5,521 nucleotides of DNA from a virus. Below, one piece after another: positions 1-5,521 of this stretch (position 1 is the stretch's first letter; each line of letters starts with the position of its first letter). The notes beneath the pieces are model-generated. The model saw nothing but the letters and a program-made list of their open reading frames with translations. It was not told the DNA's origin and did no database searches. The stretch lies in the UHGV virus genome UHGV-0380108; one strand, 5' to 3'. The position numbers and the translations under genes were made by a program.

Positions 1-2
1 AA

Positions 3-374
3 AAACTATCGGCAGAAATCAGGAAGATAAACGCAGACGCATGCAGCGGAATGGCCCAAGCGGCATATTATTACGCAGCGGGCGAAGCCCAAAAAGCGGA
101 AGCAAAAATGCTTGAAGCGAAAAAGAGAACCGAGGAGGCAACCGCAGATCTGCGAGAACTTCAATATTGGACCGAAATAGCGAATACGATTATCAGACTG
201 GCACAAATAGTGGGGAACCTGGCAATCGGAGGGAAAACAGGAAAACTAATCAGAGAATACACGGAAAAAAGGATGAATGAAACACCCCCCAAAAATTCAT
301 CAACGGTAACGCAGCACTATGATCCAGAAATGAAATTTAAGGGAGTAGACAAAACTGTGACAACAAAATGGTAG
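3..374 (+). CDS. 3' portion of an ORF already open at the window start (frame 3, no stop from base 3 to TGG-TAG at 372..374). Most likely the C-terminal ~124 aa of the VP2-like pilot/minor capsid protein continuing from 4687..5521 across a circular junction. Otherwise an independent 107-aa ORF starting at ATG 51.
   Basis: Translating frame 3 from base 3 gives KLSAEIRKINADACSG-MAQAAYYY... with no stop upstream of the track's ATG at 51. The ORF at the 3' end of the window (4687..5521, frame 1) ends on codon position 1 (g). Joining g + aa (bases 1-2) gives GAA, and the next codon starts at base 3, so the two ORFs are in the same frame across a 5,521-nt circle. Composition is A/K/E-rich and helical, as expected for the distal part of a pilot protein. 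Confidence 0.5.
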   Translation, partial: KLSAEIRKINADACSGMAQAAYYYAAGEAQKAEAKMLEAKKRTEEATADLRELQYWTEIANTIIRLAQIVGNLAIGGKTGKLIREYTEKRMNETPPKNSSTVTQHYDPEMKFKGVDKTVTTKW

Positions 375-413: not shown

Positions 414-1682
414 GTGTGTCTATATCCAAGTATCATAGAGAACCCAAAGTACGCCAAATCGAATAAAAACGGCAAAAGGGCAAGGGATCGCCGTCTAAGG
501 TGGATCCAAATTCCATGTGGATATTGCGAAGAGTGCAGACGCGCAAAAGCAAATGAATGGAGAGTAAGATTGATGGAAGAAGTAAAAAATAATCCTAAAA
601 ACTCTATATTTGCAACGCTGACATTCTCCGAGGAAAGCCTAAAAAAACTAGAATATGACGAAAAAGAACCGAACAAAGCACCTCAGAAGGCAATCAGCCT
701 ATTCAGAAAACGATGGTGGAAAAAGTATAAAACACCACTCAAACACTGGCTAATCACAGAAATGGGGCATGACAACACCAAGAGGATACATCTGCACGGC
801 ATCATATGGACAGAACTAACAGAGGAACAGTTCGAAAAGGAATGGGGGTACGGCTGGATATTCTTTGGGTATGAAGTAAACGAGAAAACAATAAACTACA
901 TCGTAAAATATGTGACAAAGAGAGACGAAGATAATCCTGAATTCAACGGGAAGATATTCACTTCAAAAGGGATTGGAGCAAGCTATATAAACAAGTACTC
1001 GCTTAACAGGCATAGATATCAGGATAAATTTACAGAGGAAACATACAAGGCAGCTTCAGGAACAAGAATAGCGCTGCCGACATACTACAGGCAGAAAATA
1101 TGGACAGATCAAGAACGAGAGAACCTCCGAATCATAAAGGAGGAACAACAGGTGAGGTATTATAACAAAACCCCTATCAAAGTAGAAACACTAGAACAGT
1201 ATAAAGAGTATGTACACGCAGTAATATATTGGCAGTCAATTAAAAAGTATGACAGAAAGAGAAAAAAAAGAGATATGCAAAGGATATGCAGATCTAATCA
1301 TAAAGAAAGAAAAGTTAATCCGAGAAATATGGGAAGTAGAGTTTGCAATCAGAAAAATGGAAGATGTGCTGACGCGGAACAAGGTTATAAAGCCTTCGAA
1401 GGAAACATAGGGGACAGATCCAGTAATCTTGTAAAGCTGATCGGCGCAAACAGAGTGTCCCAACGGAACTTCAAATATGAGGGAACATACTACGTAACAG
1501 AGGATGGAGAGACGTACGACAAAGAATACGTAGACACTCATAAACCACTGAGAACCGGCATCGACTTCTACGAGGTGAGCAATTGGATATACAACGAAAG
1601 AAAACAATTGTACGAACCTATCGTCAGAAGGATAGTAATGATCAAAAACACCAACACTCAATTATCACTAAACTATGAATGA
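414..1682 (+). CDS. Rolling-circle replication initiation protein (Microviridae VP4 / phiX174 gpA-like HUH endonuclease), 422 aa, GTG start, with ~190-aa C-terminal extension
   Basis: N-terminus MCLYP... resembles the conserved M-x-C-x-x-P start of gokushovirus VP4, which supports GTG 414 as the start. A CxxC zinc-finger-like CGYCEECRRAK lies at aa 35-42. HUH motif I is FATLTF (nt 609..626), motif II is the H-x-H element HLHGIIW (nt 789..809), and motif III carries the catalytic tyrosines YIVKYVTK (nt 897..920). Downstream are SKGIG and LPTYYRQKIW elements typical of VP4. It is the only long + ORF in the region. The stop TGA at 1680..1682 overlaps the next ORF's start. Confidence 0.88.
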   Translation: MCLYPSIIENPKYAKSNKNGKRARDRRLRWIQIPCGYCEECRRAKANEWRVRLMEEVKNNPKNSIFATLTFSEESLKKLEYDEKEPNKAPQKAISLFRKRWWKKYKTPLKHWLITEMGHDNTKRIHLHGIIWTELTEEQFEKEWGYGWIFFGYEVNEKTINYIVKYVTKRDEDNPEFNGKIFTSKGIGASYINKYSLNRHRYQDKFTEETYKAASGTRIALPTYYRQKIWTDQERENLRIIKEEQQVRYYNKTPIKVETLEQYKEYVHAVIYWQSIKKYDRKRKKRDMQRICRSNHKERKVNPRNMGSRVCNQKNGRCADAEQGYKAFEGNIGDRSSNLVKLIGANRVSQRNFKYEGTYYVTEDGETYDKEYVDTHKPLRTGIDFYEVSNWIYNERKQLYEPIVRRIVMIKNTNTQLSLNYE

Positions 1683-1845
1683 AAAAGTAAAGAAGATCGT
1701 AAAATGGATCGCGGTAATCGCAGCTGCCATCGGCGCAGCAGCTGCCGTGATCATAGAACAGGGATGCACTCACAAGCACCACCTCAAGGCAAGCGGCATC
1801 AAAGTCGACACAATCGAAGTAACAACAACAACAAAAATTAAATAA
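1675..1845 (+). CDS. Small 56-aa protein with one predicted transmembrane helix (MNEKVKKIVKWIAVIAAAIGAAAAVIIEQGCTHKHHLKASGIKVDTIEVTTTTKIK); candidate membrane/lysis-associated protein
   Basis: ATG at 1675 lies in the overlap ATGAATGA with the Rep stop (1680..1682). The ORF is open in frame 1 to TAA at 1843..1845. A 20-residue uncharged hydrophobic stretch (nt ~1696..1755) is flanked by K-rich N-terminal and charged C-terminal segments. It is tightly packed against the next ORF (taa c ATG). It falls below the length threshold of the supplied ORF track. Confidence 0.45.
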   Translation: MNEKVKKIVKWIAVIAAAIGAAAAVIIEQGCTHKHHLKASGIKVDTIEVTTTTKIK

Positions 1846-1846
1846 C

Positions 1847-2152
1847 ATGAACAAAAAATTCAGAAATCAGCTACTCGCTGAAAGCGGAAAAAAAGAGGCA
1901 GAAATCAAAAGTGTAAACCTCGAAATCGAAGAAAGAGTAGAGTCGAAAAACGGCATATTCGTACTGGTCCGCAACAAGAAAAACAAATGGGTGATCACAA
2001 TGTGCGGCGCGATCATAAACGGAAAAGAATTCAACACTAAAGAGGAAGCTGAAGAACACATAGCTAAAAAAGAGTGGGAAGACATCCTGACCGCAACATT
2101 CGTATTCATCCTGCACGTAAACGGAGAAATGAAAAACACTGAAAAAGAATAA
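1847..2152 (+). CDS. Hypothetical protein, 101 aa (MNKKFRNQLLAESGKKEAEIKSV...), no recognisable family
   Basis: ATG lies 1 nt after the previous stop and ends 3 nt before the capsid gene start. Orientation and codon usage match the flanking phage genes. The N-terminus is K/E-rich and the C-terminal half is hydrophobic (ILTATFVFILHV). Its position between Rep and the major capsid gene is where small accessory/DNA-binding ORFs sit in gokushovirus-like genomes. Confidence 0.5.
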   Translation: MNKKFRNQLLAESGKKEAEIKSVNLEIEERVESKNGIFVLVRNKKNKWVITMCGAIINGKEFNTKEEAEEHIAKKEWEDILTATFVFILHVNGEMKNTEKE

Positions 2153-2155
2153 GCC

Positions 2156-4204
2156 ATGAAAAAAACACTAGGAGGAGACAGAATTCGAAGCGAAAGCAAA
2201 ATGGAAGTATATCTGCCTAATTTCGGCAGATCGTCTCACAACGTAGGAAAGATAATCCGAACATCACAGGCATGCGGCACGATCGTTCCCTATTGGTGTC
2301 AAATAGGTATGGATGGAACGACGTTCTACATCGATATCACAACGAAGGTGAAAACGCTGCCAACAACCGGGCCTGTATTCGGAAGCTTCAAACACCAGAT
2401 CGATGTATTCGTAATTCCGATCAGGCTCTACATAGCAGCGCTGCACAATAATGCTCTAGGAGTAGGGTTGAATATGGATAAAGTATTACTACCACAATTT
2501 CAAGTGTATACAGCTAATACGTCAATTTACGAAAACGACTTCAACAGAGGGCAAGTCAATCCAAGCTCGCTGCTCTCATACCTGGGGATAAAAGGGTTCG
2601 GATACTCCGAAGTCAATCAATACCTCCGAAGATTTCCTGCAATATTCAATCTGGCGTATTGGGATATATTCAAAAACTACTATGCAAATAAACAAGAAGA
2701 ATATGCATATGTAATCACTGGAATAAACCATATCTGGAAGTCGATCTTCATAGGAGATGGATACGTTTGGGATAAAGAATGGTACGAAAACTCAGACTTA
2801 CCATACGAGGTTACTCCGACAGAACAGAAACCAAAGTACATCAGACTGGAATTCGAGGAAAAGATCTCTCCCGAAGAAGTCGGTGAGATACAGTTCCTGA
2901 CAAATAATCCAAACACGCCAACAGTAGCAAGCAACAGGATAACAAAGCTTGGAGACTCCTTTGTGTTTGAACGAACAGATCCGGAGGCACCGGGACTTAG
3001 AGAACCGAGCAATCCGAGAAAGGCAACCAACGTTTACATGTACAAAATCAAGAAGCCCATTAAATTTGCATACAGAATAACCACAAGCAGCGGGGAGCAG
3101 ATGATAACAATGCCGGACAACAAGAAGATCCAGCTAACGCCATTTCCATTAAAAAACATCGACGATATGCGAACTTCAATACTGGCAGCTCCCAGTTCTT
3201 CGGCGTTTGTGATGGATAACAGCAAAATGCCGTACGCAGCAGCAACGAAAACTCTAGATCTGCCAAATCATGACTACTCAAAAACATATCACAGCTCAAA
3301 TGCATGGTATTCACAAGCAGGGCTGGCAGTGAAAACATATCTGAGCGACAGGTTCAACAATTGGCTGAACACAGAATGGATCGACGGAACAACAGGAGGA
3401 ATCAATGCGATTACGGCAGTAGATGTAAGCGACGGAAAACTCACTATGGACGCTCTAATTCTCCAGAAAAAAATATTCAATATGCTGAACCGCGTGGCTA
3501 TTACAGACGGCACCTACCAAGCATGGAGAGAGGCGACATACGGAATCAGAAGCGCAACACTACCCGAATCTCCTGTGTTCTGCGGCGGAATGCAAAGCGA
3601 AATCGCATTCGACGAAATTGTATCGAATTCGGCAACAGACGAAGAACCGCTGGGAACACTTGCCGGCCGAGGAGTTGCGACCATGTACAAATCCGGAAGA
3701 GGGTTAAAAATCAAATGTACAGAACCCAGTATAATCATGGCTCTAGGATCAATTACACCTCGAGTTGATTACAGCCAAGGCAACAAATGGTGGACAAGAC
3801 TGCAAAGCATGGATGACTTCCACAAACCAACATTAGACGCAATTGGGTTCCAAGAACTGATAGCAGAAGAAGCAGCTGCATGGAGTACGGAAACGACTGA
3901 GGACTACACACACACGTATCAATCACTAGGAAAACAGCCGTCATGGATCGAATACACAACGGATGTGAATGAAACATACGGCGACTTTGCCGCAGGAATG
4001 CCATTAGCATTTATGTGCTTGAACAGAGTGTACGAACAAGACGTGGACGGTACAATCGGCAATACCTCAACGTATATTGACCCTACGATATACAACAACA
4101 TATTTGCAGAGTCGAGAATGAGTTCGCAGAACTTCTGGGTACAAGTAGCATTCGATGTAACAGCACGCCGGGTAATGTCAGCAAAACAAATTCCAAATTT
4201 ATAA
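2156..4204 (+). CDS. Major capsid protein (Microviridae VP1 / phiX174 F-like single jelly-roll capsid protein), 682 aa
   Basis: It is the longest ORF in the window. The N-terminal region FGRSSHNVGKI...FVIPIRLY recalls the conserved N-terminal block of gokushovirus VP1 (RSxHSF...FFVPLRLIW), from memory. Size (600-780 aa) and position fit a microvirus VP1 carrying a large inserted surface loop. An alternative start at ATG 2201 (MEVYLPNF...) is possible, but the AGGAGG at 2169..2174 is 26 nt upstream of it and too far to act as an SD. Confidence 0.88.
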   Translation: MKKTLGGDRIRSESKMEVYLPNFGRSSHNVGKIIRTSQACGTIVPYWCQIGMDGTTFYIDITTKVKTLPTTGPVFGSFKHQIDVFVIPIRLYIAALHNNALGVGLNMDKVLLPQFQVYTANTSIYENDFNRGQVNPSSLLSYLGIKGFGYSEVNQYLRRFPAIFNLAYWDIFKNYYANKQEEYAYVITGINHIWKSIFIGDGYVWDKEWYENSDLPYEVTPTEQKPKYIRLEFEEKISPEEVGEIQFLTNNPNTPTVASNRITKLGDSFVFERTDPEAPGLREPSNPRKATNVYMYKIKKPIKFAYRITTSSGEQMITMPDNKKIQLTPFPLKNIDDMRTSILAAPSSSAFVMDNSKMPYAAATKTLDLPNHDYSKTYHSSNAWYSQAGLAVKTYLSDRFNNWLNTEWIDGTTGGINAITAVDVSDGKLTMDALILQKKIFNMLNRVAITDGTYQAWREATYGIRSATLPESPVFCGGMQSEIAFDEIVSNSATDEEPLGTLAGRGVATMYKSGRGLKIKCTEPSIIMALGSITPRVDYSQGNKWWTRLQSMDDFHKPTLDAIGFQELIAEEAAAWSTETTEDYTHTYQSLGKQPSWIEYTTDVNETYGDFAAGMPLAFMCLNRVYEQDVDGTIGNTSTYIDPTIYNNIFAESRMSSQNFWVQVAFDVTARRVMSAKQIPNL

Positions 4205-4208
4205 CACC

Positions 4209-4532
4209 ATGAAAACAGCAATAAATAGAAAAGGATGCATCAACAATCCAAAACTCACATACCAAGCAGAACCAAGGGAGGTAAAACTGAGAAAAATAAT
4301 CAGCGGAGAATCCAACAATATGGATGACGGGGTATTCCCAACAATTTACACAGAAAAGAAAGACGGAGTACTGCCCGAGTATGACATAAGAACAGATCGA
4401 TTTGAGATAGCAATAGACGCGATGGATAAAATCAACCAGAGCACAGCGAACCAGATCGCGAAGAACAAGGGCGAAACTGAAAGCGTGAAAACTTTCGGGA
4501 CAGAAGTAAAAACCGATCCCGAAAAGAGCTAA
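4209..4532 (+). CDS. Hypothetical 107-aa acidic protein; possibly an internal scaffolding protein (VP3-like)
   Basis: ATG lies 4 nt after the capsid stop. Same strand and codon bias as the neighbours. The segment VLPEYDIRTDRFEIAIDAMDKI loosely resembles the P-x-Y-G/D-D...Y-x-E-A-x-N core I recall from gokushovirus VP3 scaffold proteins. That recollection is weak, so the product call is tentative. Confidence 0.45.
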   Translation: MKTAINRKGCINNPKLTYQAEPREVKLRKIISGESNNMDDGVFPTIYTEKKDGVLPEYDIRTDRFEIAIDAMDKINQSTANQIAKNKGETESVKTFGTEVKTDPEKS

Positions 4533-4561
4533 AGCAGTCGTATAAAGATCTACCAAAAACC

Positions 4562-4593
4562 AAAGAGGGGGGATATTTCCGCCCCCCTCTTTT
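4562..4593 (+). terminator. Perfect 11-bp G/C-rich hairpin (AAAGAGGGGGG / CCCCCCTCTTT, 9-nt loop ATATTTCCG) followed by T; candidate intrinsic terminator and/or structural origin or packaging element
   Basis: Bases 4562..4572 are the exact reverse complement of 4582..4592, with six consecutive G:C pairs. An A-tract lies upstream and TCTTTT downstream. The hairpin sits in the only substantial non-coding region of the genome (4533..4686), 30 nt after the stop of the 107-aa ORF. Confidence 0.5.
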
Positions 4594-4597
4594 AACC

Positions 4598-4611
4598 CTC
4601 GTAAATACGAG
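4598..4611. promoter_or_regulatory. 14-bp perfect palindrome CTCGTAAATACGAG, a candidate dyad-symmetric protein-binding site
   Basis: CTCGTA (4598..4603) is the reverse complement of TACGAG (4606..4611), with a 2-nt centre. It lies immediately 3' of the GC hairpin and upstream of the VP2 gene start. Confidence 0.25.
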
Positions 4612-4680
4612 TGACACAGTGCGGTAGACGTTTATACATATATAACGAGAACATAAGGTATAAATTCTTTTTAGAAAAGA
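4611..4680 (+). promoter_or_regulatory. Candidate promoter region for the VP2-Rep-capsid transcription unit
   Basis: GTGACA (4611..4616), a 5/6 match to the sigma-70 -35 TTGACA, is followed after 16 nt by TATACA (4633..4638) inside an AT-rich run TTTATACATATATAAC. A second TATAAAT lies at 4659..4665, about 22 nt upstream of ATG 4687. No Shine-Dalgarno sequence precedes this start or most other starts in the window. Confidence 0.2.
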
Positions 4681-4686
4681 ACGAAA

Positions 4687-5521
4687 ATGGACTTCAAAAA
4701 ACTACTAGAACTACTCGAGAAAGGAAGCAGCATGATGAACCCTATCTCAGGTATCATTGGCAACGCATCGGGAATTCTCAATATGCTAGGCATAGGCAGG
4801 AAAAAACAGATACAGCAGCAGAAAGAAATGGTGGAGAACGCAGCTCAAATAAACTACAAATACGGAGAAATGGCGGCGGAGAACGCGTTCGAAAGGCAGC
4901 AGGTGTTATATAACAGAACCTACCAAGACCAAAGCTACGCCAACCAAGTTGCACAAATGGATGCGGCAGGATTATCTCCCGGCCTAATGTACGGCAAAGG
5001 AGGTGCCGGAGGCGGAGGCGCCGGTTCAACAACAGGTGCTCCAATAGGAGCAACAGGAGCTGCCGGTGCAGGAGCAGCGGCCGATCCAAACATGCAGCTG
5101 CAGGCACTGATGTCCCTGCGACAAATACGAATGAATGAACGGAAGAATGAAGCGGAAATCAATCTGCTCAATACGCAGGCAGAGGCACTCAAGGCGGAGG
5201 CAGGCAAGAACCAGGAGGAAACCCAGTCAATAATTGAAAAGAGACTATGGGAAGTAAAGCAAGAGATGTTTAAAGGATGGAAAGGCTTCATCGATACAGC
5301 GAACCAACTGTGGGATCAGATGGTAAAATGGCAGCCCACAGAAAAGGTAACAATCGACGGCAAGGAGGTAGAAGTACCGAAATACTTCGAAATAGAAGAT
5401 GATAAATTCGGGAAGATCATATTTGGAGAGGAATCATTTCAAGGCGGCATGATGAAGGCCGAAAAGCAAATCCTCGAGGGAACAGCAGCAATTAAAACTC
5501 TAGAAAGCATATACGCAGACG
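4687..5521 (+). CDS. DNA pilot / minor capsid protein (Microviridae VP2, phiX174 H-like), 5' portion (278 codons), running off the 3' end of the window
   Basis: No stop occurs in frame 1 from ATG 4687 to the window end. The translation MDFKKLLELLEKGSSMMNPISGIIGN...QIQQQKEMVENAAQINYKYGEMAAENAFERQQVLYNRTYQDQSYANQVAQMDAAGLSPGLMYGKGGAGGGGAGSTTGAPIGATGAAGAGAAADPNMQ... carries the gokushovirus-VP2 hallmarks I recall: a Q-rich segment, AGL(N/S)PxLMYG and a Gly/Ala-rich linker, followed by a coiled-coil-like E/K/Q-rich region. The ORF is missing from the supplied track only because it lacks a stop inside the window. Confidence 0.8.
   Translation, partial: MDFKKLLELLEKGSSMMNPISGIIGNASGILNMLGIGRKKQIQQQKEMVENAAQINYKYGEMAAENAFERQQVLYNRTYQDQSYANQVAQMDAAGLSPGLMYGKGGAGGGGAGSTTGAPIGATGAAGAGAAADPNMQLQALMSLRQIRMNERKNEAEINLLNTQAEALKAEAGKNQEETQSIIEKRLWEVKQEMFKGWKGFIDTANQLWDQMVKWQPTEKVTIDGKEVEVPKYFEIEDDKFGKIIFGEESFQGGMMKAEKQILEGTAAIKTLESIYAD

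Follow-up and report, generated by a model that had tools for sequence, protein, structure and literature searches.

The virus genome UHGV-0380108 (5521 nucleotides, the whole of the stretch analysed, called the window in the following) contains an open reading frame (ORF) of 422 amino acids in which the replication initiator Rep (VP4) of the Microviridae continues into a long C-terminal part. In all likelihood this ORF is a stop-loss fusion, in which Rep has been joined, without any insertion or deletion (indel), to a separate gene in the same frame, here called Y, across an overlapping gene in the +1 frame, here called X. A first-pass annotation, made from the letters of the window, had described the open 422-codon frame from the GTG at 414, an A8 run at 1262..1269 and a +1 ORF from the ATG at 1249 to the TAG at 1408..1410. 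All of these were found again, except that the +1 ORF has 53 and not 54 codons. For the C-terminal part three explanations had been offered: an overprinted gene, a homopolymer indel or compensating frameshift pair, and a basic DNA-binding linker followed by a novel domain. With high probability the true cause is none of the three, but the loss of an in-frame stop codon between two genes that share a frame.

For comparison 48 related loci were fetched, microvirus contigs of about 5.5 kb that stem from human-gut metagenomes wherever the sample source was given. Positions 414..1850 of the window were aligned with 39 of these loci using MAFFT, and the stop codons were surveyed in all loci covering the region (n=44). 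Stops close the Rep frame in 38 of 39 aligned relatives and in 42 of the 44 loci surveyed; only two loci (L004 and L005) are open. Each stop-bearing relative carries one to three Rep-frame stops, and all three kinds of stop codon occur (Table 1). These stops arise because of codon choices in the X frame. In 27 of the 39 relatives an extra stop lies upstream (TGA at 1269, or else TAA/TAG at 1278); three stops are present in several of the relatives.

At the same positions the window reads AGA (1269), CAA (1278) and AGA (1323). The last codon differs by a single T to A exchange from the TGA found there in all nearest relatives, namely L006 and L003 (each with 91.5% identity in the Rep core), L048 (87.7%), L032 and L011. 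This exchange removes the last stop, and as a consequence Rep is joined to Y.

The window is not alone in this respect. Among the close Rep homologues (84-90% identity) two are open in the same way, P0001 with 423 and P0002 with 370 amino acids. The cluster of P0002 comprises at least 10 distinct variants of 370 or 423 amino acids on full-length contigs of about 5.55 kb. P0001 and P0366 are open at 423 amino acids; in their cluster the other members listed have mostly 285 amino acids and one has 232. The three open lineages are 90-92% identical to stop-bearing genomes as compared with 84-89% among themselves. Since they are nearer to stop-bearing genomes than to each other, the stop must have been lost at least three times independently, and the loss is viable.

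The ratio of nonsynonymous to synonymous substitutions (dN/dS) was determined in both frames as pooled Nei-Gojobori estimates over 37 unique sequences (Table 1). Judged by these ratios, the coding frames are shown to hand over from Rep to X and from X to Y, with short overlaps that are constrained on one side only: the Rep tail lies over the head of X, the head of Y over the body of X, and the tail of X over the start of the Y core. The share of variation falling on third codon positions, followed by entropy in a sliding window, changes frame at about 1255 and about 1415, the same hand-offs as seen with dN/dS.

The assignment of the first part to the Microviridae replication initiators (VP4) is solid by sequence comparison. 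It matches the Pfam family PF23343 (REP_ORF2-G2P) over residues 65-170 with 43.2 bits (cut-off 27.8) and phrog_942 with E=1e-32, and a search of 5.8 billion proteins returned 1456 Rep homologues. In sets of 18 and of 40 homologues the residues H126, H128 and G129 of the metal-binding HUH motif RIHLHG and Y162, K165, Y166 and K169 of the catalytic Tyr motif YIVKYVTK are invariant. The end of the conserved core had been placed near residue 235 in the first-pass annotation, which is too early. Across 18 homologues down to 51% identity Q274 and K278 do not vary, conservation reaches residue 278-281 or thereabouts, including Y279, and dN/dS stays at 0.10 up to 1247. In the AlphaFold model of the 422-residue product the confidence score (predicted local distance difference test, pLDDT) is 85-98 for residues 1-278, below 50 for residues 279-356, 61-68 for residues 357-409, which correspond to the Y core, and again below 50 at the end. 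The conserved part of Rep therefore ends near nucleotide 1247 (residue 278), and what had been taken for an extension of about 190 residues is an unconstrained run-on of about 140.

Residues 279-422 lie outside the Rep family, whose members terminate at 285-310 amino acids. The close Rep homologues have 285, 288, 296 or 303 amino acids, or 235 or 250 where the gene caller starts at Met54. They run colinear with the window, share its frame and end after ...KRKK, ...(G/R)(N/D)M or ...KINP/S. When 120 Rep homologues were searched with the Y profile, matches were restricted to the two fused relatives. The start codon of Rep is GTG in the window, as it is in 18 of 41 sequence variants compared, and ATG in the others; the GTG start probably explains the products of 235 and 250 amino acids truncated to the internal Met54.

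All 39 aligned relatives possess gene X in intact form; its ATG is conserved and its amino-acid replacements are conservative. Its frame has a dN/dS of 0.12-0.21 over 1249-1400, where the Rep frame has 1.1-1.2. The frame-specific test that had been proposed for this ORF thus came out in its favour, and X is by its substitution pattern a genuine conserved gene. Its 528 database homologues are unnamed and have 62-65 amino acids. Of the overprinting explanation the X gene itself is borne out; beneath it there is no functional extension of Rep, as the Rep-frame dN/dS of 1.1-1.2 and the stops in 42 of 44 loci show. The basic low-complexity string noted in the Rep frame is, from the same comparison, the A/G-rich sequence of X read in the wrong frame: the peptide is rich in K and R because the mRNA of X is rich in A and G. 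In the window X also has a 6-nt in-frame deletion near 1400. The tail of X is unconstrained (X-frame dN/dS of 1.20 for 1401-1436), and the early TAG of the window falls there.

The gene callers missed X on every full-length contig examined (L001-L004 and L043-L048; for example, L001 3874-4059), and the X entries in the protein database come mostly from short contigs.

The last 90 or so residues of the Rep frame, which had been judged to look like real protein, indeed are, with a dN/dS of 0.35-0.38 from 1401 onwards. By this constraint and by its occurrence elsewhere, the stretch is the conserved core of the separate gene Y. On nine contigs (L001-L003 and L043-L048) Y was called on its own in the same frame as Rep, with 117-119 amino acids, a start corresponding to 1329 and an end corresponding to the end of the Rep frame in the window. 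The Y family gave 3443 matches, of which the top 120 are almost all stand-alone proteins of 118 amino acids; a stand-alone UniProt entry is that of Microviridae sp. ctX1a4. Of the idea of a basic linker with a novel C-terminal domain, the linker has to be given up, and the domain survives superficially, as the core of a gene of 117-120 codons that stands alone in thousands of cases.

Neither X nor Y matched Pfam or PHROG, whether searched with the sequence or with profiles from the alignments. Searching PDB sequences with the Y profile gave matches at chance level (E of 0.1 or higher), Foldseek against BFVD found the family of Y itself and nothing else, and when 1.84 billion representatives were searched exhaustively by HMMER with the Y profile, the 24 matches, many of them fragmentary, all belonged to the same clade. 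When modelled alone, Y had a pLDDT of 54, which is too low for inferring a fold, and about 30 for residues 1-31, which are predicted to be disordered. Searches of the GenBank phages with X and Y by tblastn gave no match, and there is no annotated close relative in that collection.

Table 1. Features of the window, stop codons of the Rep frame among the 39 aligned relatives, and dN/dS by segment
Feature	Position	Strand	Remarks
422-aa ORF as read in the window: Rep (VP4-type) core, X read out of frame, then Y	414..1682	+	GTG start; uninterrupted frame; fused counterparts P0001 and P0002
Conserved Rep (VP4) core	414..1247	+	GTG start; HUH motif RIHLHG; Tyr motif YIVKYVTK
Rep tail, unconstrained	1248..1328	+	Rep-frame dN/dS 1.09; Rep of the relatives terminates here at one of several stops
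Gene X	1249..1410	+	+1 frame; 53 aa here, 55-65 aa in relatives; overlaps Rep tail and Y head
A8 run	1262..1269	+	codons (GA)A AAA AAA (GAG) of X, E-K-K-E; not conserved as a run
Stop TGA	1269		15/39 relatives; from AAT (Asn) or AGT (Ser) in X; window AGA
Stop TAA or TAG	1278..1280		12/39 relatives; from TGT for Cys in X; window TGC, giving CAA (Gln)
Stop TAA	1302 or 1305		4/39 relatives
Stop TAG	1320		2/39 relatives
Stop TGA	1323..1325		35/39 relatives; from CGT, not CGA, for Arg in X; window AGA (Arg)
Gene Y, normally separate	1329..1682	+	117-120 aa; ATG 1329..1331 invariant in 47/47 loci
Y head	1329..1400	+	overprinted on X; dN/dS 1.23 in own frame, 0.21 in X frame
Y core	1401..1679	+	IGDRS...FKYEGTYYVTEDGE...RRIVMIK...QLSL; dN/dS 0.38 and 0.35; invariant columns
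X stop TAG	1408..1410	+	8-10 codons earlier than in most relatives; from ATC to ATA, synonymous in Y frame
Segment	414-1247		dN/dS: Rep frame 0.10, +1 frame 1.34
Segment	1249-1328		dN/dS: Rep frame 1.09, +1 frame 0.12
Segment	1329-1400		dN/dS: Rep frame 1.23, +1 frame 0.21
Segment	1401-1436		dN/dS: Rep frame 0.38, +1 frame 1.20
Segment	1437-1675		dN/dS: Rep frame 0.35, +1 frame 0.91
56-aa hydrophobic ORF	1675..1845	+	+1 frame; 8-nt overlap with the Y stop
101-aa ORF	1847..2152
Major capsid protein	2156..4204		682 aa
107-aa ORF	4209..4532
Pilot-like gene	4687..5521, then in frame 1..374		402 aa, as in relatives

The junction between Rep and Y looks selected in its own right, so that Rep stops and Y starts at a TGA-N3-ATG. 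This appearance rests on codons kept in the frame of X. CGT accounts for 26 of the 727 Arg codons in the Rep core (3.6%), yet 29 of the 37 unique sequences use it at 1321-1323. A T is present at 1323 in 38 of 44 unique sequences, even where the X residue becomes His (CAT) or Ser (AGT). The X codon at 1327-1329 is ATA, CTA or GTA in all 44; its final A is always kept, which preserves the ATG of Y.

Several points weigh against the fusion of Rep with a separate Y as set out here. The segments used for dN/dS are short (36-240 nt) and the sequence pairs are not independent of each other. The first 24 codons of Y are unconstrained in their own frame, and the start at 1329 rests on the invariant ATG together with the gene-caller predictions. 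When the synonymous codons of X were resampled in a simulation, the Rep frame remained free of stops in about 16% of cases, against 2 of 37 observed; this deviates in the right direction and is weak evidence for selection of a stop when taken alone, the CGT bias being the stronger argument. A look-up of the exact 422-residue Rep in 15 billion proteins returned no record, and it is conceivable that the A at 1323 stems from a consensus error or belongs to a minority variant.

This last point leads to the first alternative, which keeps the same layout and makes the A at 1323 a sequencing or assembly error or a minority allele, the true virus having TGA, a Rep of about 303 amino acids and a separate Y. 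The absence of the exact fused protein from the proteins searched, the TGA at 1323 in the five most similar relatives and the apparent selection of the T at this position all fit such an error. On the other hand, the difference is a substitution and not a homopolymer indel, and substitution errors in a consensus are rare; furthermore, stop-free variants are found on many independent full-length contigs of two other lineages. We consider an error or minority allele unlikely, while giving it some weight.

A second alternative is that Rep-Y is an adaptive two-domain protein, or that all relatives read through a leaky TGA and the window does so constitutively. In its favour, every relative has Rep and Y in a common frame, TGA is both the commonest stop here and the leakiest of the stop codons, and at least three lineages have kept fused variants. 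A shared frame is, however, expected one time in three anyway, and distant Rep homologues lack a Y-like tail. A readthrough extension should have a single conserved leaky stop followed by selected sequence, whereas here one to three stops including TAA and TAG intervene, in most relatives with the extra upstream stop described above, and from the stops to the Y core the Rep frame is under no constraint (dN/dS of 1.1-1.2, and still about 1.2 up to 1400). An adaptive or readthrough product is therefore improbable.

The remaining alternatives concern the A8 run, at which the supposed extension had been said to begin. The run merely encodes E-K-K-E of X. In four relatives it is likewise A8, with no change in aligned length, and in the others it reads A7G, A6TG, A6GT, A4GAA and the like. 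Programmed slippage at the run, either ribosomal (+1) or transcriptional, would join Rep to X and make X an alternative C-terminus of Rep. The A8 of the window would let tRNA-Lys pair again after a +1 shift. Moreover, the ATG of X sits within the conserved K-Y-D codons of Rep, so that its conservation alone is no proof of initiation. A slippery sequence should be conserved, though, and here a G interrupts the run in many relatives (A4GAA, AAAGAAAGG and others); X is equally conserved where the run is broken (GAAAAGAAAGAAA, AAAGAAAGGAAAG and others). The length of the run does not vary between genomes, and in the distant MG945511 an X-like ORF, with weak scores, lies entirely past the Rep stop. 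Slippage is thus highly improbable. Apart from the presence of the A8 run nothing speaks for a homopolymer indel or a compensating frameshift pair corrupting a longer true Rep, and this is excluded for practical purposes, since the alignment with the 39 relatives is ungapped from 1225 to about 1395, with the run constant in length and changed by substitution only.

Three further candidates were rejected. A -1 frameshift from X into Y near 1400 lacks a slippery heptamer in the conserved ACATCGGAGACAGATCC junction. Reassignment of a stop codon (TAG as Gln or TGA as Trp) was weighed since the Rep-frame stops of the relatives align with Gln and Arg codons of the window; against it are the use of all three kinds of stop, the dN/dS of about 1 in this frame and the synonymous choices in X. 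A basic DNA-binding peptide like J or VP8 does not apply, as the basic string is X read off-frame, unconstrained and with stops in 42 of 44 relatives.

Taking the stop-loss fusion as the preferred reading, expression of the region can be pictured as follows. X would be initiated at the ATG at 1249 and Y at the ATG at 1329. Both starts are preceded by A-rich sequence and no Shine-Dalgarno motif, like the other genes here. In typical genomes the start of Y three nucleotides past the TGA of Rep may permit coupling of reinitiation to termination. In the window ribosomes translating Rep would run on and produce a Rep-linker-Y protein of about 50 kDa, besides or instead of free Y. The stretch of about 80 residues between the folded parts, which is predicted to be disordered, may let both parts work, and in this way the fusion would be tolerated.

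The arrangement resembles that of A, K and C in phiX174 (Bullavirinae). There, too, the Rep gene (A) meets the next small gene (C, like Y here) at a junction covered by a small gene of another frame (K, like X here), and the Rep stop and the next start are closely juxtaposed, as an overlapping ATGA in phiX174 and as TGA-N3-ATG here. In phiX174 the ATG of gene C overlaps the TGA of gene A, the sequence upstream of C overlaps gene K, and removal of these overlaps lowered the levels of protein C (bioRxiv 10.1101/2020.06.10.143693). Unlike in phiX174, Rep and Y share a frame, so that loss of the stop fuses both, and most relatives of the window end Rep further upstream, at the extra stops. Comparisons by Pfam, PHROG, PDB, HMMER and Foldseek/BFVD gave no similarity in sequence or fold of X to K or of Y to C. 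The likeness is one of position, an analogy and not family membership.

In phiX174 protein C acts in the switch to single-stranded DNA synthesis, and for Y such a function would be a positional analogy only. One might go further and speculate that X and Y correspond in function to K and C, within a module of the Rep-K-C type that has arisen or persisted outside the Bullavirinae, that the selected TGA-N3-ATG junction normally couples the synthesis of Y to the termination of Rep, and that the recurrent viable fusions reflect a physical action of Y with Rep, for example in a switch from replication to packaging. We regard this as rather doubtful.

Other known systems are similar in part. Gokushoviruses have the gene order VP4-VP5-..., and in Alpavirinae-like genomes VP1, VP2 and VP4 are the only recognisable genes (PMC3394797). 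As in gokushoviruses, a small accessory protein is encoded right behind the Rep gene; unlike there, X and Y have no Pfam or PHROG match to VP5 or to another family. As in Alpavirinae-like genomes, VP1, VP2 and VP4 are all that is recognisable here, with a capsid protein of about 680 amino acids. Fusions of neighbours in the same frame by stop loss likewise come about by one substitution (here TGA to AGA), lead to two genes being annotated as one ORF, and recur in related lineages; the difference here is that the spacer is another gene read off-frame, which dictates the K/R-rich linker. The A1 readthrough protein of Qbeta also has an in-frame coding segment behind a UGA, but here most relatives have multiple stops including UAA, and there is no purifying selection just past the stop.

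The stop-loss fusion is in itself ordinary, and the main value of the analysis lies in annotation. The "long Rep" of 422 amino acids, here and in similar genomes, is not a new Rep architecture, and X deserves to be annotated as a conserved gene of an abundant clade of human-gut microviruses. As a method, codon bias in one frame, such as the rare CGT and the invariant A-ending codon, exposes selection on the stop and start of another. Finally, with the natural Rep-Y fusions there is a way to approach the function of Y by experiment.

Among annotated relatives at a greater distance, bajarodmic virus 724 and MG945511 have a Rep of 303-308 amino acids, followed by small ORFs that do not overlap it and are unannotated or called "hypothetical". 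Unannotated helical ORFs of 59-79 amino acids are located in the gap just after Rep at 4866-5105 of L049 (PQ006946.1) and at 934-1113 of L050 (MG945511.1). The latter, wholly downstream of the Rep stop, matches the X profile weakly with 11 bits. Further downstream in distant relatives, ORFs of 68 amino acids weakly match the Y motif YV(T/D)(E/Q)DGE. With 6-11 bits the likeness of these ORFs to X and Y is a lead only; compared with the layout of the window it hints that the overlap in the clade of the window may be a secondary compaction.

The locus L038 (IMGVR_UViG_3300008060_000033) deviates at about 3987-4105, where a part of Rep is repeated after the X/Y junction (767-885 of the window is matched twice) and Y is cut to 47 amino acids. 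A chimeric or concatemeric assembly is the probable cause.

The window is a complete circular microvirus genome from the human gut. The pilot-like (VP2-type) ORF runs off its end and re-enters in frame at its start, giving 402 amino acids in total as does the gene of the relatives, so that the circle was opened inside the pilot-like gene. A megablast search of the GenBank phages with the whole window returned two short matches in the capsid gene and nothing else. The hydrophobic 56-aa ORF next to Y has the core IAVIAAAIGAAAAVII and a dN/dS of 0.10 in its own frame, which means strong purifying selection; its product may be a membrane or lysis protein. A perfect 11-bp hairpin with G6/C6 (AAAGAGGGGGG-N9-CCCCCCTCTTT) is situated at 4562-4592. 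It lies in the only sizeable noncoding gap, which extends over 4533-4686 and is flanked by the 107-aa ORF and the pilot-like gene, and may serve as a terminator or as a hairpin of the origin or of packaging. The pattern GAGGGGG-N7-13-CCCCCTC occurs a single time on the plus strand in 44 of 50 fetched loci.

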